A stretch of DNA of 64,000 bases from Dehalococcoidia bacterium (GCA_965207225.1 CBDBLV010000005.1:192001-256000), one strand, 5' to 3'; counted from the stretch's first letter, positions 33,055-51,401 are shown. Program-made: numbers and translations. Notes: generated by a model from the letters alone, not told the origin.

Positions 33055-34908
<1,854 letters not shown>

Positions 34909-35034: not shown

Positions 35035-35090
35035 CTACATTTGTTCTTGACTTCTAAAACAGAACGTATATACTGTTAGCAAATCTGTTC
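35035..35090 (+). promoter_or_regulatory. Sigma70-like promoter of capsid operon with LexA-like (GAAC-N4-GTTC) boxes
   Basis: TTGACT 35047, 16 nt, TATACT 35069; degenerate boxes CTACATTTGTTC (35035), GAACGTATATAC (35062), GCAAATCTGTTC (35079). Confidence 0.55.
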
Positions 35091-35106
35091 AGCTAAGGAG
35101 GAATTT

Positions 35107-35535
35107 ATGTCCGAAGAACCTACAGCCCAGGGCCCCGATCCCGAGTCGTCACCGGACGACGTTGAAGCCCCGATACCCGAGGAATCACCCCCGGAGGAGT
35201 CGCCGGAGATAAAGCGCCTGAACCTTCTGATTGCCGAGAAGGACGCAGAGATCAAAGGGATCAAGCAGCAGGTCGAACTGGCCGTGGGTAGATACCGCAG
35301 CGTTCTGATAGCCGGATCCCCAGAGCTGCCGGAAGAACTGGTGCAAGGAAGCACCATCGAGGAGCTGGACCGCTCCGTGGAATCGGCGAAGAAGATCGTC
35401 GAGAAGGTGGTGTCCCGCATCGAGGCCTGGGCCCCGGAGGCCCGGGTGCCGTCGGGGGCGCCTGCCCGGCGACCCGCTGATGTCTTGGGTCTCAGCGCCC
35501 GGGAAAAGATCCTGTACGCAATCAACAAGAGCTAG
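35107..35535 (+). CDS. Putative capsid scaffolding protein
   Basis: Acidic Pro-rich N-terminus, coiled coil, short C-terminal helix (LSAREKI); directly upstream of major capsid gene; AAGGAGG SD. Confidence 0.65.
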   Translation: MSEEPTAQGPDPESSPDDVEAPIPEESPPEESPEIKRLNLLIAEKDAEIKGIKQQVELAVGRYRSVLIAGSPELPEELVQGSTIEELDRSVESAKKIVEKVVSRIEAWAPEARVPSGAPARRPADVLGLSAREKILYAINKS

Positions 35536-35568
35536 CCATAGCACACGAATAGCAAGGAGGAAAAACAT

Positions 35569-36459
35569 ATGGCATTAACGCTTACTGAGTCCGCAAAGCT
35601 GTCCAACGACGTGCTCCTGTCGGGAGTGGTCGAGACCATAGTCAACGAGAGTCCGGTGCTCCAGCACCTGCCTTTCATCGAGATAGTCGGCAACTCCCTG
35701 ACCTACAACCGGGAGAACGCCGCCCCCACCGTAGCCTTCTACGACGTGGGTGATGCCTGGGCCGAGTCCACGCCCACATTCACCCAGGTAACCGCCACTC
35801 TGAAGATCCTCGGGGGCGACGCCGACGTGGACAACTACGTGGCGGCGACCCGCAGCAACATCCAGGACCTGGGGGCCGCGGTAGTCGAGCTGAAGGCCAA
35901 GGCCGTCCAGCAGAAGTTCGACGACACGTTCATCAACGGAGACACCGACGACAACGCCAAGGCATTCGACGGGATAGACAAGCTGACGCCGGAAAGCCAG
36001 ACGGTAAGCATGGGTGACAACGGAGCGACCCTGACGCTGGACAAGCTGGATGAGCTGATAGACAAAGTGAAGACCGGCAAGCCCGACATGCTGATCATGA
36101 GCCGGAGGACCCGGCGCAAGATGAACTCGCTGGTACGGGACTCCGGAAGCGGGTTCCTGCAGACGGACCGCAACATGCTCGGCCGGATGGTCCAGTACTA
36201 CGACGGCGTGCCCATCGGGATCAGCGACTGGGTGTCCGACGAGCAGAGGGCCGGGACCAGCCGGGACAGCTCCACGGTTTACGCTGTGCAATTCGGCGAG
36301 GAAGGGGTGTCGGGGCTGACGGGGTCCTCGGGGCTGCAGGTCGAGCGGGTCGGGAGCCTGGAGACCAAGGACGCCACCCGGACCCGGGTCAAATGGTACG
36401 TGGCCGTAGCCCTCTTCAGCACGGTGAAGCTGGCAAAGCTCACGGGAGTGCGGAACTAG
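35569..36459 (+). CDS. Phage-type major capsid protein (HK97-like fold)
   Basis: About 300 aa; SPVLQHLPF, TYNRE, ILGGDADVD, FINGD...FDGI, R.RVKWY..VAL pattern of capsid proteins; strong SD. Confidence 0.85.
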   Translation: MALTLTESAKLSNDVLLSGVVETIVNESPVLQHLPFIEIVGNSLTYNRENAAPTVAFYDVGDAWAESTPTFTQVTATLKILGGDADVDNYVAATRSNIQDLGAAVVELKAKAVQQKFDDTFINGDTDDNAKAFDGIDKLTPESQTVSMGDNGATLTLDKLDELIDKVKTGKPDMLIMSRRTRRKMNSLVRDSGSGFLQTDRNMLGRMVQYYDGVPIGISDWVSDEQRAGTSRDSSTVYAVQFGEEGVSGLTGSSGLQVERVGSLETKDATRTRVKWYVAVALFSTVKLAKLTGVRN

Positions 36460-36491
36460 CCCGGGCCCCGGGAGCAAGAGGGAGGCAACCC

Positions 36492-37112
36492 ATGACAACG
36501 CTAACCGACATCCGGGCCCGCGTCCGCACTGACCTGCACGATGAAGACGCCGGGGAGTACCGCTGGGCCAGCGCAGAGCTGGACCGGCACGTCTCCCACG
36601 CCCTCCGGGAACTCAGCCTGGCCGTACCCGTTGAGAGCAAGGCGAACCTGGAGGTCCCCGCCGGGTCACGGGACATCTCCCTTTCTTCCCTGGCCGGCCT
36701 GGTGCTCGTCGATTCCGTCGAGTACCCGGCCCGTCAGTTCCCGCCGGCTTACGTCGAGTTCCGGGTCTGGGGAGACACCCTGACCCTACTCACGGAACAG
36801 ACCCCGAGCGAAGGAGAAGAGGCCGCTGTCTACTACGGCAAGCTCCACACGCTGAACTACACGTCTTCGACGGTTCCGGAAGCGCTGGAAGACGTGCTGG
36901 TGGCGGGGGCGTCGGGCTACGCGGCGCTCAGTATGTCCGGGTTCACGATAAACCGGATCAATGCCGGCGGCGACGCAGTGTGGAGGGACTACATGGCATG
37001 GGGTCGGGAGCGGATGAACGTCTTTCACCGGGCGTTGGCGAAGCACGGGCGCGGGGGCAGGCTCAGGGCCCGACAGCTTCGCCGCGCAATGCCTGCGGCA
37101 GGGAACCGATAG
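36492..37112 (+). CDS. Putative head-tail adaptor / head completion protein
   Basis: MTTLTDIRARVR.DL.D....RW...ELD N-terminus typical of adaptor proteins; follows capsid gene; GGAGG SD. Confidence 0.6.
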   Translation: MTTLTDIRARVRTDLHDEDAGEYRWASAELDRHVSHALRELSLAVPVESKANLEVPAGSRDISLSSLAGLVLVDSVEYPARQFPPAYVEFRVWGDTLTLLTEQTPSEGEEAAVYYGKLHTLNYTSSTVPEALEDVLVAGASGYAALSMSGFTINRINAGGDAVWRDYMAWGRERMNVFHRALAKHGRGGRLRARQLRRAMPAAGNR

Positions 37113-37113
37113 C

Positions 37114-39105
37114 ATGAGAGCTTTGTCCGACGCTCTGTTAAAGGCGCAAAGATCGGCGTCGTCCCGTCCATGGGTCAGGGTGGAGGCGCTGGACCGGATG
37201 GCGGGTATAGCCCGCCTCCGGTTCCGGCGCCTCCATACCGGATCCGAGTCCGAGGGGCCTCACGCTCTGACGATCCCCGCCGACGGGAGCCTCGTCCGGG
37301 CCCGCATCGATCCATCAAATGGCCACATCCTCTACTACCAGCGGGTTGCCATCCCCTCTTCGGCCTCCGACTTCACGCGCTGGATCTCCTTAGGCGCCGT
37401 TTCCAGGGACGCAGAGGTGGCGCTGTGCTCCAGGGGGTCAGAAGTCTTGCTGTTCTCGGTATCCACCAACCGACGCACAATCTACGTCCGCACCAGCACC
37501 GACAGCGGAGCGACCTTTGGGCAACCCGTCTACGTCACCACCGCCTTTTCGACGGTTGCATCGCTGGCCGCTGCTTTCAAACCCGACGGCACGGCTCTGC
37601 TGCTTTACGTGATTGGGAACGGACTCTACGCAATTCGGCGCTCCGCCGGGAGCTGGGGATCGACCCGCATCTGGACAAACGCCCTGTCCCGCATTGACGG
37701 TGTGGCTGCCTACTTCAACAACGATTGGAACGTGGTGGTCACGGGTCGGGATGCCGGGAACAGCAAGAATGGGGTGTGGGGAACGATGCTCGGAGACGGA
37801 GCGGACCGGGCCGCAGGTACATGGTCGGGGTTAAAGGTCATCACGGAGTCGAGACCCGGTCAGGCCCTGGACTACAGCGCTCCTTCCCTTGACAGGCCGG
37901 ATGTGGACAGGCTTTTCTTCACCGAGCAGGTCACGGGGCAAGGCGGGCATAACAGACCCTTTTTCACCTTTACGACGCCCTCGACATCCTTTTCGGACAG
38001 CCTCTGGCGGGAGCCCGCAGCCTTTGAATTCGACTCGGCCTATGGCATGGCCCTGGCGCACACATCCGACCAGGCCTGGCTCTCGACGGCCAACGGCGTT
38101 TGGTCTGCGCCCATTAATCCCCCACCCCTGGACCTGAGTGAAAACATTGTCTCGGTGAACGGCAAGGAATCAACTAGGTCTGCCAGATGGCAAATCGAGC
38201 TGCGCAACGACGACGGACGGTATTCGAAACCAGGAGAAGGCAATTTGGAGCTCTTGGCCAAGGGTTCGGAGGTGAGGGTCGGGCTGGGTTACGTGACTGG
38301 GCAAGGCAGGCAGTCTTCTCCATGCTCTCCTGTCTGGATAGAAAGCCTGGAGCATCGCCGCGTTGGAGGAAGCTCCACCCTAGTAGTCCATGCTACGGGT
38401 GCCTGGGGGCTGCTGGACTGGCAGCAGGCGCGCCGGGAGCGAACGTGGGCCGTAGGAGATGCGACCGTATTCCAGATACTTAGGTCAGTCCTCGCCCGGG
38501 CGGGCTACGAATGCACGAGCCTGTCCTCCAACTTCCTGCTGGACAACCACCGGCCCGAATTCCTGGTCGAGGAGTCGGAGCCGCTGGACATGGTGGTCGA
38601 GCGGCTCATGGCCTACATGCCGGACGTGCTGCTGACAGCATCGAGAGGCGGCTTCACTCTACGAACACCCTCGGCCGACGAGGAGACGACATATATGTAC
38701 GGCTCTGGACATGGGATCCGGGAGGGGAACTACCTGGACCCGGTCCCGAGGCACAGCCGGGCAATAGTCTTTGGGTCGGGGCACACCAGTGATGTGCCGG
38801 ACTGGTCGGACTTCCCCGACCTCTTTGACAGGCCCATCCACGTCCACGACGAAAGCCTCGACACCCGGGAGAAGACCGACGCGCGGGCCTTTGCCGAGAC
38901 GCGGCGGATGGCAATCCACACCGCTAGGGGAAGCATCACCCTGCGCGTCAACGCCGGCCAGGAACTCTATGACGTGATAGAGGTGACGGACACGGCAGTC
39001 GGCCTCACTTTGGCCAACTACCGGGTGCTTGGGCTGGAGACGCGTTACGTAGCCGGGCCACGGGGGTCTCGGTACGACCAGGTGATCCGGTTGGGCGGGG
39101 TTTAG
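37114..39105 (+). CDS. Putative virion tail/hub protein with N-terminal Asp-box beta-propeller
   Basis: STDSGATF Asp-box; C-half resembles baseplate hub proteins (IELRNDDGRY, GQELYDVIEVTD...YRVLGLE). Confidence 0.55.
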   Translation: MRALSDALLKAQRSASSRPWVRVEALDRMAGIARLRFRRLHTGSESEGPHALTIPADGSLVRARIDPSNGHILYYQRVAIPSSASDFTRWISLGAVSRDAEVALCSRGSEVLLFSVSTNRRTIYVRTSTDSGATFGQPVYVTTAFSTVASLAAAFKPDGTALLLYVIGNGLYAIRRSAGSWGSTRIWTNALSRIDGVAAYFNNDWNVVVTGRDAGNSKNGVWGTMLGDGADRAAGTWSGLKVITESRPGQALDYSAPSLDRPDVDRLFFTEQVTGQGGHNRPFFTFTTPSTSFSDSLWREPAAFEFDSAYGMALAHTSDQAWLSTANGVWSAPINPPPLDLSENIVSVNGKESTRSARWQIELRNDDGRYSKPGEGNLELLAKGSEVRVGLGYVTGQGRQSSPCSPVWIESLEHRRVGGSSTLVVHATGAWGLLDWQQARRERTWAVGDATVFQILRSVLARAGYECTSLSSNFLLDNHRPEFLVEESEPLDMVVERLMAYMPDVLLTASRGGFTLRTPSADEETTYMYGSGHGIREGNYLDPVPRHSRAIVFGSGHTSDVPDWSDFPDLFDRPIHVHDESLDTREKTDARAFAETRRMAIHTARGSITLRVNAGQELYDVIEVTDTAVGLTLANYRVLGLETRYVAGPRGSRYDQVIRLGGV

Positions 39106-39164
39106 GCAGCCGGATCTGCGGCAGCCCAACCGAATACCTTCCATCGTATGCAGCCGATGTCCCT

Positions 39165-39701
39165 TTACTCAGACCCCAGAACGCCCCCCGTGATTATAAG
39201 AACGATTACGTACAGGACTACCCAGGGTATCGCCGAAACAATTACCACGAAGAAGGCCCGCAGAGTCGAGGTGTAGTCCAAGGCCTGTCGGACGCCCACT
39301 ACCATGGCAGCGACACTCCAGACGAAGGCCACCAGGACTATTAGGCCTCCTACGGCCGGGATGAAAGACAATACGTTGAACAGCCCCGGGGTCTGAGCGA
39401 AGCCCGTGCACCGGGCAAGCTGGCCCCAGTTGGCTTCCGTATCGGCCGTCTTGCATATGGTTGCTCCGATAACATATGTAACAAGAGCCCACAGGGCCCA
39501 GCCGATTACTCCCAAGACCACACCGGCAACCACCGACCGCACCACGTCGATTTCTTCGCCGCTCAGCAGCTCGCCAACCAGGCTGGCGATGGTTACCATG
39601 ACCACGATGGCGAGGGCCTGGAGGGTTGCGCCTCTATCCCTTTCTACATCCTCGTAGGTGTGGGAGTCCAATCGGGCGGCGCCTAACATTCTGGCTAACA
39701 T
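39165..39701 (-). CDS. YIP1 family membrane protein
   Basis: AARLD..TYEDVE.D..AT.QA, R..GFAQTP, VRQALD; five TM helices. Confidence 0.8.
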   Translation of the reverse strand: MLARMLGAARLDSHTYEDVERDRGATLQALAIVVMVTIASLVGELLSGEEIDVVRSVVAGVVLGVIGWALWALVTYVIGATICKTADTEANWGQLARCTGFAQTPGLFNVLSFIPAVGGLIVLVAFVWSVAAMVVGVRQALDYTSTLRAFFVVIVSAIPWVVLYVIVLIITGGVLGSE

Positions 39702-39935
39702 TTCATCACCTCGATTCTGGGAGTGCGCACTTTTAACTTTCAGCCCAAGTTTGAACCTTGGAGGTTGGGCTGTGGGGCGACCAGCGGAAGGGCGCGAATG
39801 GGAATCATGTCTTAGACGGTAATGATAGCGGACTCGGGGGCCGGCGGGGAGGGGGTATGTTGACAGTGTAGGGAGTCGGGTGAAAAATAGCCTCCGCGCA
39901 GGACATCCCTTGAACCCTCTTTCACGCGGACTTGA

Positions 39936-41159
39936 TTGCAAACCACCCCTGAAAGCCCCCAACTCCGACGCTGGACAGTAGTTGCCTCCCTCACTTCCTG
40001 TGTAGGCACGTCCCTCAGCATCGTCTTCATCATCGGGATACTGCTTCCTGAAATCTCGGAAGAGTTGGACCTTTCGCCGCTGGCCCAGGGTTGGCTGGGG
40101 TCATCCGTCCTCATAGCCAACCTGATATTCTGCATCCCCGTTAACCTGGTCACATCCAGGTTCAGGCCGTGGCGGACGGTGACGCTGCTGTTTCTCGGGG
40201 TAACGGGCTCGGCGCTGCTGCAGAGCTGGACACCGGTGCTCGGGGCGCTGTTTATCGGTCGGGTGGGCTCCGGGCTCTTTTTCACCTCAACCCAGTCCCC
40301 CCGAGCCCTGCTCATCCAGCAATGGATCCCCGGACACCGCATCTCCTTCACCAACGGCCTGGCCTTTGCAGGCATAGACCTGATCATGGGCATTGGTTTC
40401 CTGGTCACGCCCCAGTTCCAGGCACTGGCCGGGGGATGGCGGGAGACGTTCTTCATCTGGTCGATGATCCTGCTGGGCCTGACGGTGGTCTGGATGATAG
40501 TCGGGGGGGAGAGGGTCACGGAGGAGTACGCGACCCGGGCCCGGGCCGAAACCTCGAGCCCCCTGAACGCCCTGCGCAACTACCGGCAGCTGTGGATCAT
40601 GGGGCTGGGGATGGGGGGCTCGATGGCGGCTCAGGCGGGGTTCCAGAACTTCTGGCCGACGCTGGCGGAGGATAAGCTGGGTTTCGGGGCGGGGTTCGTG
40701 GGGTTGGCCCTGGGAGCTACCACCTTCGCCGCCGCCCCGACCGATTTCCTGGCTAACGCCATTCCCGGCCTGATCAGGCGCCGCACCCTGGTCCTTTCGG
40801 TGTGCAGCATAGCATCGGTAATCTCCCTGACCGGCATGGTCTACGCCACCTCCGCACCCCTGGCCCTGGGTCTGGCCGTGTTGAAGGGGTTCTCCTTCGC
40901 CTTTTTCCCCGTGCTGATGATCATGGTGTTCCTGATCCCGGGCATCAGGCCGAGAGAGATAGGCATAGGAATGTCGTTCATGGAGACGTCGATCTGGGGA
41001 GGGTCGGCGATCGGGCCGCTGCTGGTCGGGGGTCTGCAGCAGGCGACGGGAGACCTTCAGACAGCCCTGTTCATCAACGGGCTTCTGCCGTCGATACTCC
41101 TAGTGTCGGCGGGGATGCTGTACGTGAGGGAGCGGAGGGCGGCTTTGCAGTCGGGATGA
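39936..41159 (+). CDS. MFS transporter
   Basis: About 12 hydrophobic helices, GILLPEI..EL.LS pattern, 407 aa. Confidence 0.85.
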   Translation: MQTTPESPQLRRWTVVASLTSCVGTSLSIVFIIGILLPEISEELDLSPLAQGWLGSSVLIANLIFCIPVNLVTSRFRPWRTVTLLFLGVTGSALLQSWTPVLGALFIGRVGSGLFFTSTQSPRALLIQQWIPGHRISFTNGLAFAGIDLIMGIGFLVTPQFQALAGGWRETFFIWSMILLGLTVVWMIVGGERVTEEYATRARAETSSPLNALRNYRQLWIMGLGMGGSMAAQAGFQNFWPTLAEDKLGFGAGFVGLALGATTFAAAPTDFLANAIPGLIRRRTLVLSVCSIASVISLTGMVYATSAPLALGLAVLKGFSFAFFPVLMIMVFLIPGIRPREIGIGMSFMETSIWGGSAIGPLLVGGLQQATGDLQTALFINGLLPSILLVSAGMLYVRERRAALQSG

Positions 41160-41225
41160 GGGTCGGATAACGGCTTGCGACGAGGAGAAGGCAACCCGGC
41201 AACAAAAGGAGCGAATGACCTGGCG

Positions 41226-41435
41226 CTAATTCAGCAGCACAGCCGTCGTCACCCCGCTGGCAACAGCCGCAAGGATCGACCCGATAATCCCAATGCTGAC
41301 CCACAGCAGCTTGTCCAGTTTGGATTCAAGCTTGTCAATCCGACCTTCCAGCCGGGTGAAACCACTTTCCAGTTGACGATGGCCCTCAATTAAGGCGCCA
41401 ATTGTTTGAGCAGTAGTAGTATCGACAGTAGTCAT
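41226..41435 (-). CDS. Small coiled-coil + C-terminal TM protein (XhlA/DUF1640-like)
   Basis: RLEGRIDKLESKLDKLLW followed by hydrophobic helix; lower GC. Confidence 0.65.
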   Translation of the reverse strand: MTTVDTTTAQTIGALIEGHRQLESGFTRLEGRIDKLESKLDKLLWVSIGIIGSILAAVASGVTTAVLLN

Positions 41436-41648
41436 GTGTGTCAGTCTCTAGGTGGATTGCTCATAGAATAATCAAGTCAATACATTGTGTCAAATTGTTG
41501 TATTTATTGACCCATTCGAGACGAGGCATGATTTACTTGTAGGGGACTTTGGCATCCTCCCAGTCTTAAGGTCCTAAGCTCCCCATCCCCCATGCTACAA
41601 TTACCCCCGTTCCCGACTCGGCATTTATCGCACATTTCGGAGGCACAC

Positions 41649-42431
41649 TTGAGGCTTAAGGATAAGGTCGCGATTGTCACGGGGGCCACGGCGGGGATGG
41701 GTCGGGCGGCGGCGGAGCTTTTTGCCCGGGAAGGGGCCAGGGTGGTGATGTGCGGGCGCAGGAAGGAGTTGGGGCAGGAGATCATCGACCTGATAAAGGG
41801 GTGGGGTGGGGAGGCGACCTTTGTTACAGCGGATGTGGCCCGGGCCGAGGACGTGAAGCGCGTCGTCGACACCGCAGTCTCGACATACGGCAGGCTGGAC
41901 GTGCTGTTCAACAACGCCGGCATCAACGAGCACACCGAGGGCGACCCCGACAAGGAGCCCGTCGAAATCTGGGACAGGATCATCGACGTCAACCTGAAAG
42001 GCACGTTCCTCGGCATGAAGTACGCCATCCCGGAGATGCGCAAGGCCGGGGGCGGTTCCATAATCAACAACTCCTCGGTCAACGACTCCCAAGCCGACAT
42101 GGTGTCCATGTCCTCCTACCACGCCTCCAAGGGCGGGGTCACGGCCCTTACCAAGAAGGCCGCCGTGGAGTATGCCTCCGACAACATCCGGGTCAACGCG
42201 GTGAACCCGGGGCCCATCGCTACGGAAATGGTGGACATACCCTGGGACAAGCTTACCGACCCGGACATCGTCGCCGAGCGCAAGACCAAGCAGCCCCTGA
42301 ACCGGATGGGCCACCCCATGGACGTAGCCTACGCAGCGCTCTATTTCGCCTGCGAGGAGTCGGCGTTTGTGACGGGGGCGACATTGCTGATAGACGGCGG
42401 GCAGTCGGCGGCATACCGGGACCCGGTGTAG
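41649..42431 (+). CDS. SDR oxidoreductase, tandem paralog 1
   Basis: TGATAGMG, NNAG, YHASK; TTG start after GGAGG. Confidence 0.92.
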   Translation: MRLKDKVAIVTGATAGMGRAAAELFAREGARVVMCGRRKELGQEIIDLIKGWGGEATFVTADVARAEDVKRVVDTAVSTYGRLDVLFNNAGINEHTEGDPDKEPVEIWDRIIDVNLKGTFLGMKYAIPEMRKAGGGSIINNSSVNDSQADMVSMSSYHASKGGVTALTKKAAVEYASDNIRVNAVNPGPIATEMVDIPWDKLTDPDIVAERKTKQPLNRMGHPMDVAYAALYFACEESAFVTGATLLIDGGQSAAYRDPV

Positions 42432-42456
42432 CAGAGAAAAGTAACCGGAGAAGAAC

Positions 42457-43239
42457 ATGAGGCTGGATGGAAAAGTTGCCATAGTCACAGGGGCCACCGC
42501 CGGGATGGGCAGGGCTGCCGCAGAGCTGTTCGCAGAGGAAGGGGCCAAGGTGGTGATGTGCGGGCGCCGGGAGTCGCTGGGACAGGAGGTTGTGGACGTG
42601 ATCAAGGGGAAGGGTGGGGAGGCCACCTTCGTCAAGGCCAATGTGGCCAGCGAAGAAGACGTGCAGAAGGTGGTGGACACGGCGGTCGGGAGCTACGGCA
42701 GGCTGGACGTGCTGTTCAACAACGCCGGCACGGACACCGGGTGGCTTGACGACCCCGCCCAGGAGGCCGAGGAGGACTGGGACCGGGTCATCGACGTAAA
42801 CCTGAAGGGCACGTTCATGTGCATGAAGTATGCTGTGCCGGAGATGCGCAAGGTCGGGGGTGGGTCCATCATCAACAACTCGTCGGTGTGGGACGTACAG
42901 GCGCCCCTGTCCTCCAGCCCCTCTTACCACGCTTCCAAGGGCGGGGTTACGGCCCTAACCAAGAAGGCCGCCGTGGTCTACGCAGCCGACAACATCCGCG
43001 TGAACGCAGTTAACCCGGGCGCTGTCGCAACGGAGATGGTCGACATCCCGTGGAACAAGCTGGACGACCCCGAGGTGATCGAGTCCCGCAAGAAGCTGCA
43101 ACCCCTGCCCCGCATGGGCCACCCCAGGGACGTGGCCTACGCCGCCCTCTACTTCGCCTGCGAGGAGTCGGCTTTCGTGACGGGGGCCACACTGCTCGTT
43201 GATGGTGGTCAGTCGTCGGCTTATCGAGATGTCGTCTGA
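42457..43239 (+). CDS. SDR oxidoreductase, tandem paralog 2
   Basis: TGATAGMG, NNAG, YHASK. Confidence 0.92.
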   Translation: MRLDGKVAIVTGATAGMGRAAAELFAEEGAKVVMCGRRESLGQEVVDVIKGKGGEATFVKANVASEEDVQKVVDTAVGSYGRLDVLFNNAGTDTGWLDDPAQEAEEDWDRVIDVNLKGTFMCMKYAVPEMRKVGGGSIINNSSVWDVQAPLSSSPSYHASKGGVTALTKKAAVVYAADNIRVNAVNPGAVATEMVDIPWNKLDDPEVIESRKKLQPLPRMGHPRDVAYAALYFACEESAFVTGATLLVDGGQSSAYRDVV

Positions 43240-43284: not shown

Positions 43285-44067
43285 ATGAGGCTTGAAGGTA
43301 AGGTCGCGATCGTGACGGGAGCCACTGCGGGTATGGGCAGAGCGGCGGCAGAGCTCTTTGCCCTGGAGGGTGCCAAGGTGGTGATGTGCGGCAGGCGTGA
43401 ATCGCTGGGTCAGGAAATCCTTGGTGTGATCAAGGGGCGGGGTGGGGAGGCGACTTTCGTCACGGCGGATGTGTCCAAGACAGAGGACGTGAAACGAGTA
43501 ATCAAAGCCGCTGTGGACACCTACGGAAGACTTGATGTCCTGTTCAACAACGCCGGCATTGACAGCGGTCTCATGGACGACCCAACCCAGGAGTCAGAGG
43601 AGGACTGGGACCGAGTCATAGACGTCAACCTGAAGGGAACGTTCCTGGGTATCAAGTACGCAGTGCCGGAGATGCGCAAGGTCGGGGGTGGGTCCATCAT
43701 CAACAACTCGTCCGTCAATGACACCCAGGCGGGGGTGGCCTCCACCATTTCCTATCACGCATCCAAGGGCGGCGTCACAGCCCTGACGAAGAAGGCCGCA
43801 GTGGTCCACGCCGCCGACAACATCCGGGTCAATGCCGTCAACCCCGGCCCGATCGCCACGGAAATGGTGGACATCCCCTGGGACAAGCTCACCGATCCCG
43901 ATACCATAGAGACACGCCTGAGGCTGCAACCCCTTCGTCGGATGGGCCACCCCATGGACGTCGCCTACGCAGCCCTATACTTTGCATCCGACGAGTCGGC
44001 CTTCGTGACTGGGGCCACGCTGATAATCGACGGTGGTCAGGCGGCGGCGTACCGGGACGTCGTATAG
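43285..44067 (+). CDS. SDR oxidoreductase, tandem paralog 3
   Basis: TGATAGMG, NNAG, YHASK. Confidence 0.92.
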   Translation: MRLEGKVAIVTGATAGMGRAAAELFALEGAKVVMCGRRESLGQEILGVIKGRGGEATFVTADVSKTEDVKRVIKAAVDTYGRLDVLFNNAGIDSGLMDDPTQESEEDWDRVIDVNLKGTFLGIKYAVPEMRKVGGGSIINNSSVNDTQAGVASTISYHASKGGVTALTKKAAVVHAADNIRVNAVNPGPIATEMVDIPWDKLTDPDTIETRLRLQPLRRMGHPMDVAYAALYFASDESAFVTGATLIIDGGQAAAYRDVV

Positions 44068-44111
44068 CCGTCCGATCCTTCTATATTTACCTCATTCTTT
44101 AGGAGGAGCGC

Positions 44112-44897
44112 ATGAGACTTGCAGATAAGGTTGCCATAGTTACCGGGTCCACAGCGGGGATTGGAAGGGGCGCCGCGGAACTCTTCGCCAAGGAAGGGGC
44201 CAAGGTGGTGGTCTCGGGCAGGACTGTCGAGGCGGGAGAACGAGTTGCAGAAGGGATTCGGGCGGGGGGCGGGGAGGCAATTTTCGTCAAAGCCGACGTT
44301 TCACTCGCAGCCGACGTCCAGCGGATTGTGGAAGAGACAGTCGCCGCATACGGCAAGCTGGACGTGCTCTTCAACAACGCGGGCACTGGGAGCAAGGGCC
44401 TGACTGCCGACGAGTCGGAGGAGAGTTGGGACCGCTGTATTACGATCAACCTGAAAAGCGTCTTCTTGGGCATAAAGTATGCCGTGCCGGAGATGATCAA
44501 AAACGGCGGCGGCTCCATAGTCAGCAACGCCTCCATGTGGGGTGTCACCGCCAGCCATCGGTGCGCCGGCTCCTACGTCGCTTCCAAGGCGGCGATCATA
44601 GGGCTCACCAAGAAGGCGGCGCTGGACTATGCGAAGCAGAGGATACGGGTGAACTGCATCTCCCCCGGCGACATCGGGTTTGTGGGCATGGAAAATGACG
44701 AGGACTACTGGACTCGACCCGACATTGTCGAAGACTTCGAGACCCGCCAGCCCTACCCCCACATGGGCACCCCCGAAGACTGCGCCTACGCCGTTCTCTA
44801 TCTCGCCAGCGATGAGTCGGCATTCGTCACGGGGACCAACCTTGTGCTGGACGGCGGCATGACCATTGCGGAGATCCTGGCGGGGGGTCGGGGGTGA
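44112..44897 (+). CDS. SDR oxidoreductase, more divergent paralog 4
   Basis: TGSTAGIG, NNAG, YVASK. Confidence 0.92.
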   Translation: MRLADKVAIVTGSTAGIGRGAAELFAKEGAKVVVSGRTVEAGERVAEGIRAGGGEAIFVKADVSLAADVQRIVEETVAAYGKLDVLFNNAGTGSKGLTADESEESWDRCITINLKSVFLGIKYAVPEMIKNGGGSIVSNASMWGVTASHRCAGSYVASKAAIIGLTKKAALDYAKQRIRVNCISPGDIGFVGMENDEDYWTRPDIVEDFETRQPYPHMGTPEDCAYAVLYLASDESAFVTGTNLVLDGGMTIAEILAGGRG

Positions 44898-45071
44898 AGG
44901 GCCGAGGTCCTGCCAATAGTGTCTAAGCGGCAACTACCGACCCTCGTCCAACATCCCATCTAACAAAGCGAGTTGGAACAAACCTGACTCTCTTTACGTC
45001 TCCACTAGCGTGACCTGAGGCCATGGCGCGCTGTTTTGCCGGTGCGACGCAGGCAATCGTATACTGCCCGA

Positions 45072-45683
45072 ATGTCGCCTCCCGGTAGGACAGCGGAGCC
45101 GGAAGAGGTCCTCGTGGCCCGCAGCCGGGACGGGGATGTCGACGCCTTCAACCGGATCGTGGATATGTACCAGAGGCCGATGTACAACCTGGCGCTCCGA
45201 ATGCTGGGCGACGCCCCCGCTGCAGAGGATGCCACCCAGGACGCTTTCATCTCGGCCTTCCGCAACATTGGCCGGTTCAAGGACGGGAGCCTGAAGTCCT
45301 GGCTCTTCACCATTGCGGCAAACCGGTGCCGGGACATGCTCCGGGCCCGCAGCGTCCGCCCGGCCGAGTCCCTGGACTCGGAGGAGACCACCCTCGACCC
45401 CCCATCCCGCACAGAGTCCCCCGAAGACTACGCCGTCAGGCGAGAGATGGGCCGAAGCATTCAGCAGGCCCTTGCTACTCTCCCTCACGACCAGCGCCTG
45501 GCCGTAGTGTTGATCGACGTGCAGGGCCTGGCCTACGAGGAAGCTGCAGAGGTCATAGGAATTAACGTAGGCACTGTGAAGTCGCGGCTGAGCCGGGGTC
45601 GGGGGCGGATCAGAGATTTGCTGAGGGAGAAGCCGGGGATTCTGCCAGCCCGGTATGGGAGCCAGGACCGAGAGCGTGATTGA
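45072..45683 (+). CDS. ECF RNA polymerase sigma factor
   Basis: [31 protein letters not shown]...[11 protein letters not shown]. Confidence 0.93.
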
Positions 45684-46641
45684 GTTGCTAAAAAGCTTTT
45701 TCGACAGGGGGCACGGGCGCTTCCTGGGGATGCTGTCGGACTTCATCGATGGCGAACTGGAACCCGGGGCCCGGGCGGCGCTGGAAGAGCACCTGGTCGC
45801 CTGTTCGGCCTGCAGCGAGGAGCTGGAGTCGCTGCGGGCGACGGTGCTGATGCTCCGCCGGATGCCGGAAGTCGAGGCGCCGCGCTCGTTCAGGCTGGCA
45901 CCGGCATCCGTGAGCGAAATCTCACCTCCTCCCGAGAAGCCGGTCTTCCAGTGGGCGATGCGGGTGTCGACGGCCGTAGCTGTGGTGGCCTTCACGGTTA
46001 TGGTGGCGGGCAACGTATCAGGGCTTTGGGATGGGGGAGGGTTGAGTGAGGAGGGTCCAGCCGCGTCGGCCTTCGATGCGGAGATGGCTTCTGATTCGCC
46101 GGACTTCATACCGACTTCCACACCCGCAGCTATGATGGATGAACCCGAAGAAATGATGGCCCCCGAGCCGGACATGCCGCCCCGCTCCACGCCCGTGATG
46201 GAGCGGGCAGCCCCCGAGCCCACCGCAATGCCAGAGGCTACGATGGACGAAATGGAAGAAGCAGCCGCGGACGAACCCGCGCTGGACGCGGCAGCAGCTA
46301 TTGCTGAGGACGATAGCCTCGTTGCCGAGGCTGCACCCGAACCCACCGGCACTCCCATGCCCGCGCCTGCAACTGCTCCCATTCCGACTCCTCTACCCAG
46401 CCCAACCCCGACACCCGCGCCTACGGCCACTCCGACCCCAACGCCCGAACCGACACCGGCGCCTACTGCAACACCGGCACCCGAGCCTACACCCTTGCCC
46501 TGGACAAGCACCGATATAGAAGTGGACGATGAGGGAAGAGAGGTGATAACGGGGTTGACTATCGGGTTGGGGATATTGGCTGGTGCGCTGGGCATCGGGA
46601 CGATTTACCTGACGCTGAGGAGGCGTCGGGGGGTGGGGTAG
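45676..46641 (+). CDS. zf-HC2 anti-sigma factor with Pro/Thr-rich region and C-terminal TM
   Basis: HLVACSAC (HxxxCxxC); central TM helix; overlaps sigma gene. Confidence 0.88.
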
Positions 46642-46693
46642 GGGGTGACACCAACGGAGAGAGACAAGGTGAGGCAGTAGGTTAGGATTCTCT

Positions 46694-47185
46694 CTAGTGA
46701 TGGTTCGGGGTTGAACTCTCGGCAGTGTCAAGGTCACGAAGAACTTCTTCGTAAGCCTCAACACGGGAGGAGTCCCCGGCTTTGCGCGCCTTGTCCAATT
46801 TTCCTCGTATGACGGCTCTGAGCTCCGCCCGTTCCTGGGCCCGACCCTCAGCCCGGCCCTCGGCCCGACCCTCAGCCCGACGTTCTTCCCGTACCCTTTG
46901 CAGCCATCTTTCGGTCAACACCATGATGACACTCCTTGCTTCTGCCGCAATCATGCTAATTGTAGCAGAGCCTATTGCCAGGGAACCCGCGTGGCCCAAA
47001 ACCGCTGTCAGAATTGCTAAGACAGAATTTCTTTGACTGACTCCCTCCAGGGACTCATTTGTCGCAGCTACCGACATTCCTGCGATGAACAGAAGGAAGA
47101 AGGCCGTGAAATAGAACCTCTTTGTGCGAGAGTCGACGGTCCATATGGACTCCCGCTCATTATTGGTGGTCACCTGTCCGTACAC
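46694..47185 (-). CDS. Hypothetical membrane protein with Rpn-like RAEG-repeat C-terminus
   Basis: Two hydrophobic helices then RAEGRAEGRAEG; internal AAGGAG-7nt-ATG at 46924. Confidence 0.65.
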   Translation of the reverse strand: MYGQVTTNNERESIWTVDSRTKRFYFTAFFLLFIAGMSVAATNESLEGVSQRNSVLAILTAVLGHAGSLAIGSATISMIAAEARSVIMVLTERWLQRVREERRAEGRAEGRAEGRAQERAELRAVIRGKLDKARKAGDSSRVEAYEEVLRDLDTAESSTPNHH

Positions 47186-47472
47186 TAGTGCGGCCTCACG
47201 GTCCCAGGGTTAATGCAGTGTTCGACCCAGGCTTCACCGCAGCTTTGGGACTCCTCAGATTAAATGTCATGGGCTGGATAGTTAGACACCATCGTATTAC
47301 TTTCAGGGGCTAGAAGAATTCTTAGACACGAATACGTGGAAGAAACAGACCCTCAAGAGAAGCAATAATAGCACTCTAATGTAACATGCTCAAGCACATG
47401 CCAGGATTGTCCGATGACAATTTCCACAGAAATGTGGGATGGGGAACAAGCAGCTATCCTAAATATCACCTT

Positions 47473-48804
47473 TCACTGAGAGGAAGTCGGGGAGGGGGCC
47501 TCTTCCTTGACGAGGGTGAGTTCGCGGTCCGGGTCCTGGATGCCGAGGTTGGACATGGCGCGGCGGCGGCTGTGGATGCCAGAGCGGACGAGGGTCTCCT
47601 CGTCCTGGACTAGGCGGCTGCGGTCCTGGGGAAGGATGGGGCCCCAGAGGACTTTCGGGCGGACGGGGCCGAAGTCGAGGCCCTGGTATCGCTCAAGGAC
47701 CTGGAGGATCATGCGGGCCCGACGCTCGTAGGCGGAGGTGCGGATGAGGCGCTTGCGGCGGACCTTCTGGACGAGGGGGTTCAGCTCTATGTCCAGGGCC
47801 ACACCGGAAAGGCCACGGGCATTGTCGCCGAAGCTGGGTCTCGGGGATTCGGAGAGGTCATGGAGGGCGCGATAGACGAGGTCGATGAACTCGGTGTGGA
47901 GGCGGACGCCGCCGCCCTGGAGCAGGTCCAGGAGGTAGGCGCGGGAGCTTTCGGGGACCTCCCACACGGCCCCGGGCTGCACGGTGATGTCGCTGGCGTC
48001 CTCTATGTTTTCGAGCACGGCTATGGGGTTGCCGGACAACTCGAGGATCATCGAAAGCTGGGAGAAGGCGCGGTTCAGCTCCCGGGCGGGCTCCATGATG
48101 GCAGGCACGTCGGATGCGCCCCAGAAGCGCTTGGGCTCCCGGATGTTGGGGAAGACGACGAAGGGGATGAAGCCGTAGGGGTTGGCCCGACTCTCCTGCA
48201 TGGCGTTGTCTATCCAGATTTCGAAGGTGTCTGCGGTCCAGACTTCTACGATGGTGGAGTCGGGGCGGTTGCCGCCGGCGGAGGAGGCATGGGCCCCTGA
48301 ACCGTAAAGAAGCTCGACCTCGTCGGCGGAGAGCTTGTAGCGGCTGGCGATGCGCCATACGCGGTTGACGTCGTCGCCGACCCACCAGGCGAAGATTCCC
48401 TGCACGTCGGGGGCGGAGACGCGGACACGCTCTTCTTCGGCATCCCAGGTGACCTTGTAGGCGGCGTCGCCGAGGACAGCGGCGTCGAGTTCGGTGTCGA
48501 AATCGAGCTGCTGCAGGTCGTTGTCGGCGTAGACGGCGGCGAGGGCCCGGCTCGCTTCCTCGGCCCTGCGGGCGGCTTCATCGGAAGAGTCGAAAGGCTC
48601 GACCGTGAAGCCGATGTCGGCCATGAGGTAGGAAGTTATCTTGTCGATGAAGGAGCGGGCGTAGTTGAAGGTGAGGCGTCGCTCCTTGCGGCGGGAGTGG
48701 TCGAGCCACTGTCCGCCGGAGTAGAAGTCGAGGTTTTCGGAGTAGGAGCGGAGGCGGTCGGGGTCCATGCGTTCGATTTGCTGGGGGATTGTCAGGTTTG
48801 TAAT
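47473..48804 (-). CDS. Phage portal protein (SPP1 gp6-like); first ATG at 48768, possible ATT start at 48804
   Basis: DFYSGGQW, LTFNYARSFIDK, NPYGFIPFVVFPN, WGASD, SGVAL motifs; downstream of terminase. Confidence 0.85.
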   Translation of the reverse strand: MTNLTIPQQIERMDPDRLRSYSENLDFYSGGQWLDHSRRKERRLTFNYARSFIDKITSYLMADIGFTVEPFDSSDEAARRAEEASRALAAVYADNDLQQLDFDTELDAAVLGDAAYKVTWDAEEERVRVSAPDVQGIFAWWVGDDVNRVWRIASRYKLSADEVELLYGSGAHASSAGGNRPDSTIVEVWTADTFEIWIDNAMQESRANPYGFIPFVVFPNIREPKRFWGASDVPAIMEPARELNRAFSQLSMILELSGNPIAVLENIEDASDITVQPGAVWEVPESSRAYLLDLLQGGGVRLHTEFIDLVYRALHDLSESPRPSFGDNARGLSGVALDIELNPLVQKVRRKRLIRTSAYERRARMILQVLERYQGLDFGPVRPKVLWGPILPQDRSRLVQDEETLVRSGIHSRRRAMSNLGIQDPDRELTLVKEEAPSPTSSQ

Positions 48805-48858
48805 GGTTTTCTCTCTTTCTGTGTTTTTGTGAGCAAATGAGGTCTTTTGATTATTGTT

Positions 48859-49176
48859 TCACCCTCACCCCAGCCCTCTCCCTTAGGGCCTTTAAGGGAG
48901 AGGGGGAGAAATAAACAGAGGCATACGCCTGCGCCTCGGCGCAGGCGTATGCCTCTAGTTTGGTACTGGGGGGAACGGGGGAGGGCCACTCCACCCACTG
49001 AAACGATTGGTGTGTCGGAAGATGCGGTGCACTATTCGATATACCTTTCCCTGCGGGGAAGGGAACCCTCACCCCCTTGATCCCCCTCTCCCTTAGGGCC
49101 ATTAAGGGAGAGGGGGAGAAAAGAACAGAGGCAGACGTTGGCGCTTCAGCGCCAACGTCTGCCTCTAGTTCAATAC
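48859..49176. repeat. Two copies of the composite palindromic element between terminase and portal
   Basis: 19-bp perfect hairpins at 48917-48956 and 49127-49166. Confidence 0.8.
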
Positions 49177-49268
49177 TGGGGGGAAGGGGGAGGGGGAGCC
49201 AGAGGCCACCCCTGGCTGCCCCAGATTCCTCGCGGGGCATCGGAATGACATGATGAGGGGTGGTTGTT

Positions 49269-50663
49269 TTATTCATAACCTTGGCGGAGGCGGCCGGTGG
49301 CGCGGCGGGGGATGTAGTGGGAGGCGTGGACGAGGAGGGCCAGGGAGGTGAGGAAGTCGTCGTGGCCCTGGGAGGGGTCTACGAAGAAGTTGATGGTCTG
49401 GTTGGGCCTGACTACGCTCCTTGCTTTCGAGATCTGGGACCAGAACTCGGTGGATTCGGGGGAGCCGTCGGGCTTGTAGGCGTGGAGCCTGCCGGAGTTG
49501 ATGGCGGCGAGGAGGTCGAAGCCGAGGTCCGACTTGCTGCGGGCGGTGAAGTTGAAGGGTTTGACGATGGAGGTTCCCAGAGATTTACGCAGGAAGGCGG
49601 CGACGCCAGCGCCAACGCCTGTGGCGTCGACGACTACCCTGCGGCATTTCCACACGTTTTTGAGAAGGTGAACGAGGGTCGAGTAGATCTCCGTGTGGGG
49701 TTTCCCAGTCCACCAGTGGTGCTCGACCACACTGAGGGAGGGGTTTTTCGATCCGAGGCCGTCGTCGGCGAGGCGAAGCTCGGCGATGGTAAGGACGGTG
49801 GAATCGCTTAAGGTCCGGGTGGCCGAAGTCCCGGTATGGCCAGAGGATTCTACATCGCCGGCGAGGTCTATGCCGGCGACGTAGGTTTGCCCCTGTAGGG
49901 GGGCTTTTGTGCGGCTGTGGTTGCCCTGAAGGAGGGCGAGCCGCGTATTGTCCAGGAACCTTCCATCGTCGGAAACGGGGGTAAGGCAGTACTGGGAGAG
50001 GAACAGGGGATGATCGCTGCCGAGGCGCTGCTGTTCGGCCTCGACGAAGCGCTGGTATTGAGGGTTGTGTTTAGCTACGGCCTGCCAGTCGAACTCGAAG
50101 TGGCGTTGAATGCCATCGGAGCGTTGAAGCTCGAGGTTGGACTGCTTGACCTGCTCAAGCAGCGAGTTTTCTTGCCAGGCGGTGCCGTAGTGGACGGTGG
50201 TGACGTTGGTGGAAGCGCCCATAGGCATGAAGTCGCGGTTGAACTTGTCGGGAGAAACGTCCTGGGACTCGTCGATTTCGAGGAGGATATCGGCGGTGTT
50301 GCCGACGACGTTGCTGGTGGGATGGGCGCTGAGGAAGAGCTGGCGGGCATGGCCGACGCGCAGACAACGGCCATTTTCGATGAGGTAGCAGCGGGAGAGG
50401 CCGGCATGGTCGAAGGTCTGCCGGAGGCGGCGGAAGCTGATGTGGGCCTGGGGGTGGAAGGTGGGGGCGGCCTTCACGGCGGCGCCGCCGGTGGGGGCGT
50501 AGGCGAAGAGGGCGGCGGTCTCGACGTGGGCGGACAACTCGTTCTTGCCGCCCTGGCGGGCGATCATGACGGAGAAGGATAAGCCCTTACTATCGCGGAC
50601 ACTCTCGATGATGGCGCGCCCGATCTCGATCTGGTAGGGCCAGAGGTAGTTGAGGTCTACCAA
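49269..50663 (-). CDS. Terminase large subunit
   Basis: Q motif WPYQ, Walker A ARQGGKN, Walker B LLEIDE, RNase H acidic motifs GIDLAG, VVDATGVG, HDD. Confidence 0.85.
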   Translation of the reverse strand: MVDLNYLWPYQIEIGRAIIESVRDSKGLSFSVMIARQGGKNELSAHVETAALFAYAPTGGAAVKAAPTFHPQAHISFRRLRQTFDHAGLSRCYLIENGRCLRVGHARQLFLSAHPTSNVVGNTADILLEIDESQDVSPDKFNRDFMPMGASTNVTTVHYGTAWQENSLLEQVKQSNLELQRSDGIQRHFEFDWQAVAKHNPQYQRFVEAEQQRLGSDHPLFLSQYCLTPVSDDGRFLDNTRLALLQGNHSRTKAPLQGQTYVAGIDLAGDVESSGHTGTSATRTLSDSTVLTIAELRLADDGLGSKNPSLSVVEHHWWTGKPHTEIYSTLVHLLKNVWKCRRVVVDATGVGAGVAAFLRKSLGTSIVKPFNFTARSKSDLGFDLLAAINSGRLHAYKPDGSPESTEFWSQISKARSVVRPNQTINFFVDPSQGHDDFLTSLALLVHASHYIPRRATGRLRQGYE

Positions 50664-50881
50664 GGGGTGACCTCGGCGATGCCGAAGACGAACTGGAGCA
50701 TGGCGGCGATCATGACGAAGAAGAAGAGGGTGTTGATGCGACCCTTAATCTCGGCGACCTGCCGCTGGAGCTCTGCGAGGCGCATTTCGAGGACGGCGTC
50801 GAAGGTGGACTCGGGCTTGATAGCCGGAGGCGCGGGGGCGGGGGGCTTGCGGTTGAAGATGTTTATGGGGTTCTTAAGCAT
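50657..50881 (-). CDS. Small coiled-coil + TM protein (holin/XhlA-like candidate)
   Basis: Overlaps both neighbours; RLAELQRQVAEIKGRIN followed by hydrophobic helix. Confidence 0.6.
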   Translation of the reverse strand: MLKNPINIFNRKPPAPAPPAIKPESTFDAVLEMRLAELQRQVAEIKGRINTLFFFVMIAAMLQFVFGIAEVTPW

Positions 50882-51287
50882 TGGTCTTTCCAGGAATCAG
50901 GTCCATGCCGAGCTCCAGGGAGATGTCTTTGATGACGGTGGCGATGCCTTCCGCGGCATCTTCAGGGGAGTCCTTGGAGACGCGGTTCTTGGCGGCGTAG
51001 GCGCGGACGATGAGCTCGATGGTCTTGAGTATGCGGGGTGTGTTGTCGCAGTTCTTATCCGTGAGTTCCTCATGCAGGAGGTCCTTGAGGCGCATCCTGA
51101 GGATGCCGATCTCCGGGTCGGGGTGTTGGATCTCCTGAGCGCTGACAAGCTTCTTCCTTGCAGCTGAGGTGAATACAGGGAAGTAGAAGGAGACACCCGG
51201 GGCGGCGGGCTTTTGGGCCTGGTCGCCCCGGGGCTCCTTAGACACGGGCGACGGGTCGGGTTGGGGGTTGCGCGGGCGGTTGGTCAT
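50874..51287 (-). CDS. Putative terminase small subunit
   Basis: Small helical protein at the head of the terminase operon; EIGILRMRL motif. Confidence 0.5.
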   Translation of the reverse strand: MTNRPRNPQPDPSPVSKEPRGDQAQKPAAPGVSFYFPVFTSAARKKLVSAQEIQHPDPEIGILRMRLKDLLHEELTDKNCDNTPRILKTIELIVRAYAAKNRVSKDSPEDAAEGIATVIKDISLELGMDLIPGKTNA

Positions 51288-51371
51288 TCGGCAGTCCTTT
51301 CAGCCAGTTCGGCAGTTCAATTTTTTCGGCGATGCAACGGGTCCGACGGGTCGGGGCCCGGGTCGGTAGGT

Positions 51372-51401
51372 ATGATAGGACTAATGTACGCAGTGTGTCA
51401 A
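51372..51401 (-). promoter_or_regulatory. Sigma70-like promoter of terminase operon with LexA-like box in spacer
   Basis: TTGACA, 18 nt, TATCAT; GTACATTAGTCC (51389-51378) in spacer. Confidence 0.5.

Follow-up and report, generated by a model that had tools for sequence, protein, structure and literature searches.

A candidate domesticated phage particle without a tail tube, resembling gene transfer agents, in Dehalococcoidia

Why should a bacterial chromosome carry the genes for a phage head, a DNA-packaging machine and a tail hub, with no recognizable gene for integration or replication beside them? The question is raised by positions 35,035 to 51,401 of a 64,000-nucleotide stretch of Dehalococcoidia bacterium DNA (GCA_965207225.1, CBDBLV010000005.1:192001-256000), hereafter the window, from whose first letter positions are counted. 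The window is G000:C5:192001-256000 in our numbering of genomes and contigs, and genome G000 (4.03 Mb, five contigs) is estimated to be 92% complete and 8% contaminated. Several of the 22 DNA-type sequencing runs listed with the stretch are labelled sponge metagenome, and no RNA-type run is among them. A sequence-only reading had proposed a gene transfer agent (GTA) or domesticated phage particle. Our analysis leads to a similar answer: with a probability of about 0.6, the locus encodes a domesticated, vertically inherited, tube-less phage particle of a GTA-like kind.

All eight genes named in the sequence-only reading were found as open frames where it had placed them. They are phage-derived and form two convergent groups, with about 8 kb of host genes in between:

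35107-39105, plus strand: capsid group (scaffold-like protein, HK97-type capsid protein, SU10-type adaptor, 663-amino-acid propeller and hub protein)
35107-35535, plus strand: scaffold-like protein, 142 amino acids, directly 5' of the capsid gene; weak match to phrog_233 'head scaffolding protein' (E-value 0.021)
35569-36459, plus strand: HK97-fold major capsid protein, 296 amino acids (phrog_212, PF05065)
36492-37112, plus strand: head-to-tail adaptor of SU10 type, 206 amino acids (PF24175 SU10_adaptor, E-value 6.9e-07, above the curated cut-off)
37114-39105, plus strand: tail hub protein, 663 amino acids, recognized with AlphaFold2 and Foldseek; single copy in the genome
47473-51287, minus strand: packaging group (small-terminase-like protein, 74-amino-acid membrane protein, large terminase, portal)
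47473-48768, minus strand: portal protein, 431 amino acids (SPP1_portal PF05133, 2.7e-17; phrog_64, 2.6e-30); single copy
49269-50663, minus strand: large terminase (TerL), 464 amino acids, with ATPase and nuclease domains, recognized by fold matches and catalytic motifs
50657-50881, minus strand: 74-amino-acid protein with a hydrophobic helix at the C-terminus; the gene overlaps its neighbours at both ends
50874-51287, minus strand: small-terminase-like (TerS-like) protein, 137 amino acids, directly 5' of the terminase gene in all mapped relatives

The capsid assignment is carried by two profiles, phrog_212 'major head protein' aligning across residues 1-296 at 5.7e-75 and PF05065 at 1.8e-11 (44.4 bits against a cut-off of 24.2), by which the gene product is predicted to be an HK97-fold major capsid protein. 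The open frame of the adaptor starts at 36393, and the conserved start at 36492 was taken from an alignment of relatives. The 663-amino-acid protein has no family match in Pfam or PHROGs and was modelled with AlphaFold2 from a 51-sequence alignment, giving a predicted local distance difference test score (pLDDT) of 92.9. In the model, the C-terminal half (about 340 residues) has the central baseplate hub fold of Mu gp44, T4 gp27, contractile injection systems and VgrG. A Foldseek search of the PDB returned 7b5h_AJ (8.5e-16) and Mu gp44 (1wru, target-normalized TM-score, TMt, 0.67), and also 9ki1_G and 3cdd; the probability was 1.00, with TMt of 0.62-0.72 to the hubs of Mu gp44, MuSo2, Milano and 7-7-1, and the matches in BFVD were tail proteins. 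As the model matches baseplate and tail hubs, the earlier label 'tail/hub-like' was right. The N-terminal half (approximately residues 1-330) is modelled as a beta-propeller, with pseudaminidase and propeller lectins among the lower-ranked PDB matches (ranks 45-50). No structure in the PDB search spanned both halves (best query-normalized TM-score, TMq, 0.39), and we know of no solved structure that combines a propeller with a gp27-type hub. Single-sequence searches of the PDB with the hub, terminase and capsid proteins gave no match.

The large terminase is too diverged for Pfam and is weakly matched by hidden Markov models (7.5e-05). Its AlphaFold2 model, built with 17 homologues, is of moderate quality (pLDDT 69.4), and large terminases account for 27 of the 29 best displayed PDB matches, including all of ranks 1-27; among them were T4 gp17 (7.3e-11), D6E (TMt 0.52-0.55), Sf6 gp2 and HK97. 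A profile search against PDB sequences gave three insignificant matches, each to a terminase nuclease domain. The motifs pointed out in the sequence-only reading were confirmed: Walker A (ARQGGKNE) and Walker B (LLE.DE), together with three acidic positions of the nuclease, are invariant in all 17 aligned sequences. By its Walker ATPase and the acidic residues of an RNase-H-like nuclease, the modelled protein is classified as a large terminase.

Is this a phage? The frames scanned with Pfam in the region and around it, which do not take in every small frame of the window, showed no integrase, repressor or replication protein; the closest Phage_integrase match in the genome is on the same contig, over 600 kb away from the window. 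Repeat analysis revealed no direct repeat flanking the region, and no tRNA gene that could serve as an integration site is present within the window. The whole genome contains a single PF05065 Phage_capsid match and no match to PF04860 Phage_portal or PF10145 (tape measure). The scans thus bear out the previously claimed lack of an integrase, repressor, replication gene, tape measure and att repeat. The host-like composition also held, the G+C content of the region (0.60-0.64) lying within the range of the window (0.53-0.67), and so did the ordinary host genes, which were seen on both sides of the groups and in the gap. None of the parts of a functional temperate prophage (integrase and att sites, repressor, replication genes, complete tail, lysis cassette) was detected at the locus, nor, here or in mapped relatives, the integrase, att sites and replication module that stand beside the packaging genes of capsid-forming phage-inducible chromosomal islands (cf-PICIs) and other satellites. 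On the other hand, the gene set does look like the packaging module of a capsid-forming island (TerS, TerL, portal, scaffold, capsid, adaptor; no tube). The locus might therefore be an integrase-less provirus or capsid-forming satellite that is still spreading, perhaps with the aid of a helper, and that owes its wide distribution to infection. We consider this improbable: besides the missing integrase, replication gene and flanking repeat, the genome holds no other capsid, portal or tape-measure family to mark a helper, and the comparisons below add to the case.

The architecture of the cluster was established by gene-family mapping of 80 related loci. The common order is TerS-like, 74-amino-acid protein, terminase, Cys4-HTH protein, portal, scaffold, capsid, optional small genes, adaptor, hub and a 70-amino-acid protein. 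The scaffold-like family occupies the same place in 42 of the 80 loci, the adaptor was found in 66, and the 74-amino-acid gene is conserved between the TerS-like and terminase genes. One optional gene between capsid and adaptor, the sole one named by Pfam or PHROGs, encodes a concanavalin-like lectin domain. From its sequence pattern, the 70-amino-acid protein may be a gpV/gp5-like spike. The Cys4-HTH protein (about 100 amino acids, e.g., L013:11539-11862 and L043:3245-3643) has a four-cysteine motif and a C-terminal helix-turn-helix; it is present in the cluster of most relatives, matches a 'late transcriptional activator' PHROG weakly (1.2e-4), and is a candidate regulator. A tblastn search of G000 found no counterpart of the genes located, in relatives, between capsid and adaptor or after the hub. 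No tube, sheath or tape-measure-sized gene lies between adaptor and hub, or beyond, in any mapped locus. The expectation of a probably short-tailed particle fits this gene content, in which the hub directly follows the adaptor.

The separation of the two groups is a recent rearrangement specific to part of the genus and not a design, because sister species and other families carry one contiguous cluster. The cluster is undivided in G001, G002, G004 and G006 of the same genus, in the neighbouring genus (G010) and in other families; in G000, G005, G007 and G008 the packaging half is inverted and lies beyond the transporter-dehydrogenase block. Of the proposed two operons with separate promoters and host genes between them, the promoter-like sites (listed below) and the intervening genes were found, and the arrangement as a design feature was not upheld. 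Separation has also occurred elsewhere with the frames kept open: 45 kb lie between the halves in G016 and 170 kb in G037. Genus g70, which includes at least nine complete genomes (1.7-2.1 Mb), carries capsid, portal, adaptor, hub and terminase; in five of its complete genomes the distance between terminase and capsid gene ranges from 8 kb to over 1 Mb, all copies being open. In addition, G000 has a second TerS-like/74-amino-acid/terminase operon (C1:233071-235072, L021) with a full terminase copy at 77% identity, located among housekeeping genes (a SIS-domain protein, phosphoenolpyruvate carboxykinase, UbiA and YidC).

Scattering of this kind makes self-propagation implausible. Since the genes occupy two loci, with a spare terminase operon and no integration, replication or mobility genes, we conclude that the locus is not a self-propagating virus; genes spread over at least 16 kb here, and over up to 1 Mb in relatives, would make it unlikely that a particle packages its own genes. 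Intact halves 8-170 kb apart, with a terminase up to more than 1 Mb off, likewise speak against a spreading provirus or satellite, as do identical flanks in different genera. Downstream of the cluster, 19 of the 80 loci, with capsid identities from 67% to 97%, carry short-chain dehydrogenase genes, and the flank of a major facilitator superfamily (MFS) transporter and dehydrogenases recurs in G010, which belongs to a different genus.

How widely is the set kept? Two surveys were carried out. The first covered 41 genomes representing 30 families of the class, of which 30 were positive for the capsid gene, 34 for the portal, 33 for the terminase and 29 for the hub; by our tally, 25 genomes had all four genes, 10 a partial or fragmented set and six none. 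The six (G026, G027, G029, G032, G034 and G039) are 71-98% complete, five of them 97-98%. In the second, a capsid search of 401 Dehalococcoidia genomes that were at least 90% complete, 228 genomes from 126 of 207 genera were positive (one of them, G214, is an unpublished genome). Capsid and portal genes of this kind are therefore common in the class, as the sequence-only reading had supposed, and its suggested check for single copies was also borne out, about 210 of the 228 carriers showing one match by our reading. Presence is nearly all-or-none by family (31 of 34 genomes in f16, 21 of 23 in f6 and 9 of 9 in f1, the family of the window, versus 0 of 34 in f22, 0 of 11 in f24 and 0 of 10 in f29).

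Related genes are also found outside the class. A search of 301 genomes spread over the phylum showed a single-copy capsid gene at 46-54% identity in 20 sampled members of other Chloroflexota classes (G549, G605, G647, G661, G668, G581 and 14 more). Three such loci were mapped: in L185, L186 and L188 taken together, a portal lies nearby in two, in a different arrangement, and no genes were called in the third (71% G+C). Related head modules may thus be conserved beyond Dehalococcoidia. The nearest capsids of isolated phages, Clostridium and Pseudomonas siphoviruses, are 42.5% identical, versus 54-97% within the class. In IMG/VR, 19 contigs of 4-27 kb carry this capsid gene, as a spreading provirus would lead one to expect; the four of them that were mapped show the same chromosomal cluster on short fragments.

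To compare the cluster with its hosts, trees were built from the RpoB, capsid and portal sequences of 22 genomes in which all three are full-length, those with partial sequences being excluded. The capsid plus portal tree had nine of 19 splits in common with the RpoB tree, while shuffled labels gave a mean of 0.2 and a maximum of three in 2000 trials. Among the common splits are those of the genus and its two subclades, of its family, of the pair G024 and G025, and of a five-family clade; agreement inside f1 and at two deeper nodes is a further point against spread by infection. The total length of the capsid plus portal tree was 1.14 times that of RpoB, indicating that these phage-derived proteins evolve slowly, at about the rate of RNA polymerase. 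Resolution at depth is poor in both trees, and a well-supported deep RpoB clade missing from the capsid plus portal tree is not rejected by the data behind that tree (approximately unbiased test, p-AU 0.183); we therefore find no significant conflict with the host tree. Vertical inheritance, as had been proposed, fits the distribution and the phylogeny.

Selection was assessed as the median pairwise ratio of nonsynonymous to synonymous substitutions (dN/dS) among eight species of the genus. The ratios were 0.083 for the capsid, 0.105 for the portal, 0.150 for the hub, 0.175 for the adaptor and 0.27 for the scaffold, compared with 0.133 for enolase, 0.101 for the MFS transporter and 0.113 for Yip1; the value for the sigma factor was excluded, as it came from wrong-frame or paralogous matches with five stops. 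No stop codon was found in the eleven element and host genes compared. The structural-gene ratios of 0.08-0.18 were obtained at synonymous distances of 0.6-1.3. A dN/dS below 1, which the sequence-only reading had asked for, was thus obtained, purifying selection on the structural genes being about as strong as on neighbouring host genes.

From these results we conclude that the host lineage has retained the eight genes for its own use: they make up a complete head and packaging set with adaptor and hub, lack mobility genes, occur once per genome and follow families, and they show housekeeping-like substitution rates and dN/dS and repeated scattering without decay. Invariance of the terminase motifs and constraint on the portal suggest that this use includes DNA packaging. 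The evidence for domestication would be no different if the host kept the particle for something else, such as PBSX-like killing, a decoy, DNA export for biofilm or interference with infecting phages, with packaging as a side effect or in the service of that role. DNA delivery is a prediction from gene content, the lectin- or sialidase-like propeller of the hub could bind cells for any purpose, and there is no tube or tape measure to take DNA across an envelope. We nevertheless hold another use to be the less likely explanation, at perhaps one chance in a handful, since terminase motifs invariant in 17 of 17 sequences and a strongly constrained portal make packaging appear selected, and the known phage-derived killing particles are contractile or flexible tails, and no such parts are present here.

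Several observations weigh against a domesticated GTA-like particle, beginning with the fact that the system is known here from its genes. No lysis gene that could provide a route of release was found. The Cys4-HTH gene is missing in G000, G005 and G008, with hairpins in its place in G000 and G008 and a short spacer in G005; in the window, the place between terminase and portal at which relatives carry this gene is taken up by about 500 bp of hairpin repeats. The spike-like 70-amino-acid gene is missing from the whole genus. Two terminator-like hairpins stand 5' of the portal gene, where the scan showed no promoter-like site. The cluster has decayed to pieces or acquired internal stops in G014, G015, G017, G022 and G024 and in the G010 terminase, and partial sets occur, no hub being found in G011 and G036 and no terminase in G031 and G038. 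As to inheritance, the agreement of nine splits answers in part the call for congruence with the species tree, and deep vertical descent is not proven: for the 12 genomes outside f1, patristic distances are weakly correlated (r 0.29, reached by 276 of 2000 shuffles). Some capsid identities even exceed RpoB identity (G038, 73% against 61%), which, like the poor resolution at depth, would suit a provirus or satellite.

The packaging genes add to these objections. They are clearly less constrained than the structural genes (dN/dS 0.35 for the terminase, 0.31 for the 74-amino-acid protein and 0.81 for the TerS-like protein). Upstream of the terminase, the open frames and the hydrophobic helix of the 74-amino-acid protein were found as predicted, and the identity of the 137-amino-acid protein as TerS is weakly suggested by gene position and by one of 17 family members, which matches small-terminase PHROGs (phrog_1889, 6.6e-09); the window protein itself matches neither Pfam nor PHROGs. 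Full terminase copies number four or five in G005 and G007, the gene being multi-copy in this genus only. Terminase nuclease-domain fragments (residues about 200-376, up to 61% identity) are also restricted to this genus, with 8-31 matches per genome (31 in G006). In G000 they lie inside long frames with a common N-terminal stretch and hairpin-repeat flanks, one of them adjoining an rve-type transposase, and may represent captured pieces of pseudogenes or else a new gene carried by the repeats:

C5:1617168-1617716: nuclease-domain fragment, first of L189-L193
C4:456456-456962: nuclease-domain fragment
C5:1307802-1308437: nuclease-domain fragment
C5:1895473-1896105: nuclease-domain fragment
C3:315506-316051: nuclease-domain fragment

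Could the locus then be a dead prophage remnant, without function and not yet erased? Pseudogene-like copies in some lineages, the two cluster genes lost in G000 and the hairpins ahead of the portal gene would agree with that. However, all eight frames are open and the structural genes remain under the constraint reported above; in the subclade without the Cys4-HTH gene the ratios are still low (0.06-0.12 for the capsid, 0.14-0.19 for the portal and 0.16-0.20 for the hub), and the gene set is retained across a class in which RpoB outside the family is only about 57-67% identical to that of G000. A functionless relic is thus very hard to reconcile with the data, and we give it hardly any weight.

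If the favoured reading of a domesticated, GTA-like particle is right, a tailed phage would have been taken over by an ancestor of most Dehalococcoidia and kept under host selection since. The scaffold and the HK97-type capsid protein would build a shell in which the portal is present, and the terminase, as ATPase and nuclease, would pump in and cut DNA with its small partner. The SU10-type adaptor would close the portal, and the large hub, judging from gene order, probably sits directly on the adaptor, so that the 'tail' would consist of adaptor and hub only. The beta-propeller half of the hub is the likely binder of a target cell surface. Like a GTA, the particle would most likely package whatever DNA its terminase engages. 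Particle formation, adaptor-hub binding, packaging of host DNA and delivery to other cells are all predicted from the gene set.

Nine promoter-like sites were found in the region compared with 3.5 expected, and the top three are directly 5' of the two gene groups:

35047-35074, plus strand: promoter-like site (TTGACT, 16 nt, TATACT) matching the consensus at 10 of 12 positions; a strong ribosome-binding site comes after it
51487-51459 and 51401-51372, minus strand: two promoter-like sites, each with 11 of 12 consensus positions, ahead of the packaging operon
Within 51288-51487, minus strand: conserved leader, about 85 nt long, preceding the packaging operon

The promoter and leader of the two G000 terminase operons are nearly identical base for base, and the leader is also present in orthologues of the genus; the TerS-like proteins of the two operons are only 32% identical. 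The leader does not fold more stably than shuffled sequences (z -1.72; 11 of 200 shuffles at least as stable). Comparison of the regions upstream of the capsid operon and the portal with the terminase operons gave no informative common word, only a single 9-mer between the portal and one operon, and no promoter common to the capsid and terminase operons was found. Taken together, the observations allow a more far-reaching but tentative proposal, which we think possible and less probable than its negation. It holds that this is an ancient GTA lineage of Dehalococcoidia's own, of a build not seen before (HK97 capsid, SU10-type adaptor, propeller-bearing gp27-type hub cap, no tube) that may suit thin envelopes. 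In the sponge species, the terminase operon would have multiplied into TerS-TerL pairs with a common promoter and leader and divergent TerS, which could give one capsid several DNA-loading specificities. Cultured members of Dehalococcoidia are not known to have a cell wall.

A 141-amino-acid frame between terminase and portal (48851-49276, minus strand) was rejected as a gene; it consists of two copies of a dispersed hairpin-rich repeat found at about 90 places on all five contigs. The repeat unit has a perfect 19-bp stem, a T-rich run and a second palindrome, resembling repetitive extragenic palindromes or miniature inverted-repeat transposable elements. Other copies in the window lie at 31319-31368, 53507-53556 and 55038-55087. 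An Rfam scan of 33000-53000 gave nothing credible.

The host genes between the groups encode a Yip1 membrane protein, the MFS transporter, four tandem short-chain dehydrogenase paralogues, and an extracytoplasmic function (ECF) sigma factor with a zf-HC2 anti-sigma factor. The dehydrogenases (41592-44897) were identified from their translations and by repeat analysis, with a period of about 810-830 bp and a DNA identity of 67-79%. The sigma and anti-sigma genes (45036-46641) adjoin the portal gene, and in the sister species and G011 they lie between portal and scaffold; from this recurrence we conclude that a host-type regulator is embedded in the cluster throughout family f1. Just 3' of the portal gene is an open frame of uncertain membership:

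46694-47185, minus strand: membrane protein, 163 amino acids, no family match

The protein is present at the same position in G007 (87% identity) and has a 46% identical paralogue elsewhere in G000. One outer flank contains enolase, a SLOG-family protein, GAPDH and RNase PH, and the other a CAP-domain protein, MsrB and others. Proline/threonine-rich repeats with a 12-nt period occur in the anti-sigma factor (46378-46521) and the CAP-domain protein (51747-52034), and a 1497-amino-acid membrane protein with a PMT-type glycosyltransferase domain and DUF2298 is encoded at 26816-31309.

Dehalococcoidia, whose gene exchange is little understood, abound in the deep subsurface and the dark ocean, in sponges and in contaminated aquifers. 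Should our reading be correct, a DNA-packaging particle that hosts keep in over half of the species sampled would offer a candidate route of such exchange and would represent an independent domestication of a phage outside the few known GTA lineages. A minimal assembly of capsid, adaptor and hub would also show how little tail a DNA-carrying particle requires. In the literature covered, mostly open-access main texts without supplements, neither a GTA nor a conserved capsid cluster was described for Dehalococcoidia or Chloroflexota. GTA activity has been reported in Faecalibacterium (PMC12946183), and for RcGTA, from the alphaproteobacterium Rhodobacter capsulatus, a structure is available (PMC7296036).

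Which known system, then, does the locus most resemble? With the characterized GTAs (RcGTA, BaGTA, VSH-1, Dd1 and VTA) it has in common a chromosomal, phage-derived structural cluster, the absence of genes of its own for replication, integration or excision, inheritance with the host lineage (deep nodes being poorly resolved) and purifying selection at the level of the host. The head genes follow the same order of TerS (here a TerS-like gene), TerL, portal, scaffold, capsid and adaptor, and in both cases the parts may occupy several loci. The differences are that there is no meaningful sequence relationship, that no regulator comparable to CtrA or GafA was identified here, and that the adaptor is directly followed by the hub without tube or tape measure, whereas the characterized GTAs known to us have tails. 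A GTA is defined by particles that carry more or less random host DNA, in pieces too small to encode the particle, and that pass it on to recipient cells; for our locus such behaviour is a prediction. We thus do not file the locus as a GTA member: its genome-visible features match, and the defining behaviours lie beyond what a genome can tell.

The cf-PICIs also encode their own TerS, TerL, portal, scaffold, capsid and adaptor and no tail tube. They are mobile, carry integrase, att sites and replication genes, and borrow the tails of helper phages; the present locus has none of these three, brings its own hub, is split and follows the host phylogeny. PBSX-type defective prophages of Bacillus are similarly maintained by the host, package DNA and cannot propagate. 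PBSX, however, is a complete contractile-tailed killing particle with lysis genes that packages host DNA, while no such tail or lysis genes are present at our locus. Filamentous-type IME1 elements of Dehalococcoides, recently described as integrating and excising, are virus-like but unrelated; according to the preprint, they contain none of the hallmark proteins of tailed viruses and do not track the phylogeny of their hosts (bioRxiv 10.64898/2026.09.15.751708). For single parts, the closest relations are the SU10 (Kuravirus) adaptor family PF24175, whose Pfam cut-off the window adaptor passes, and the hubs Mu gp44, T4 gp27 and VgrG, which the C-terminal half of the hub resembles. In known phages the gp27-type hub caps a tail tube, whereas here no tube gene is present and the hub is fused to an N-terminal beta-propeller.

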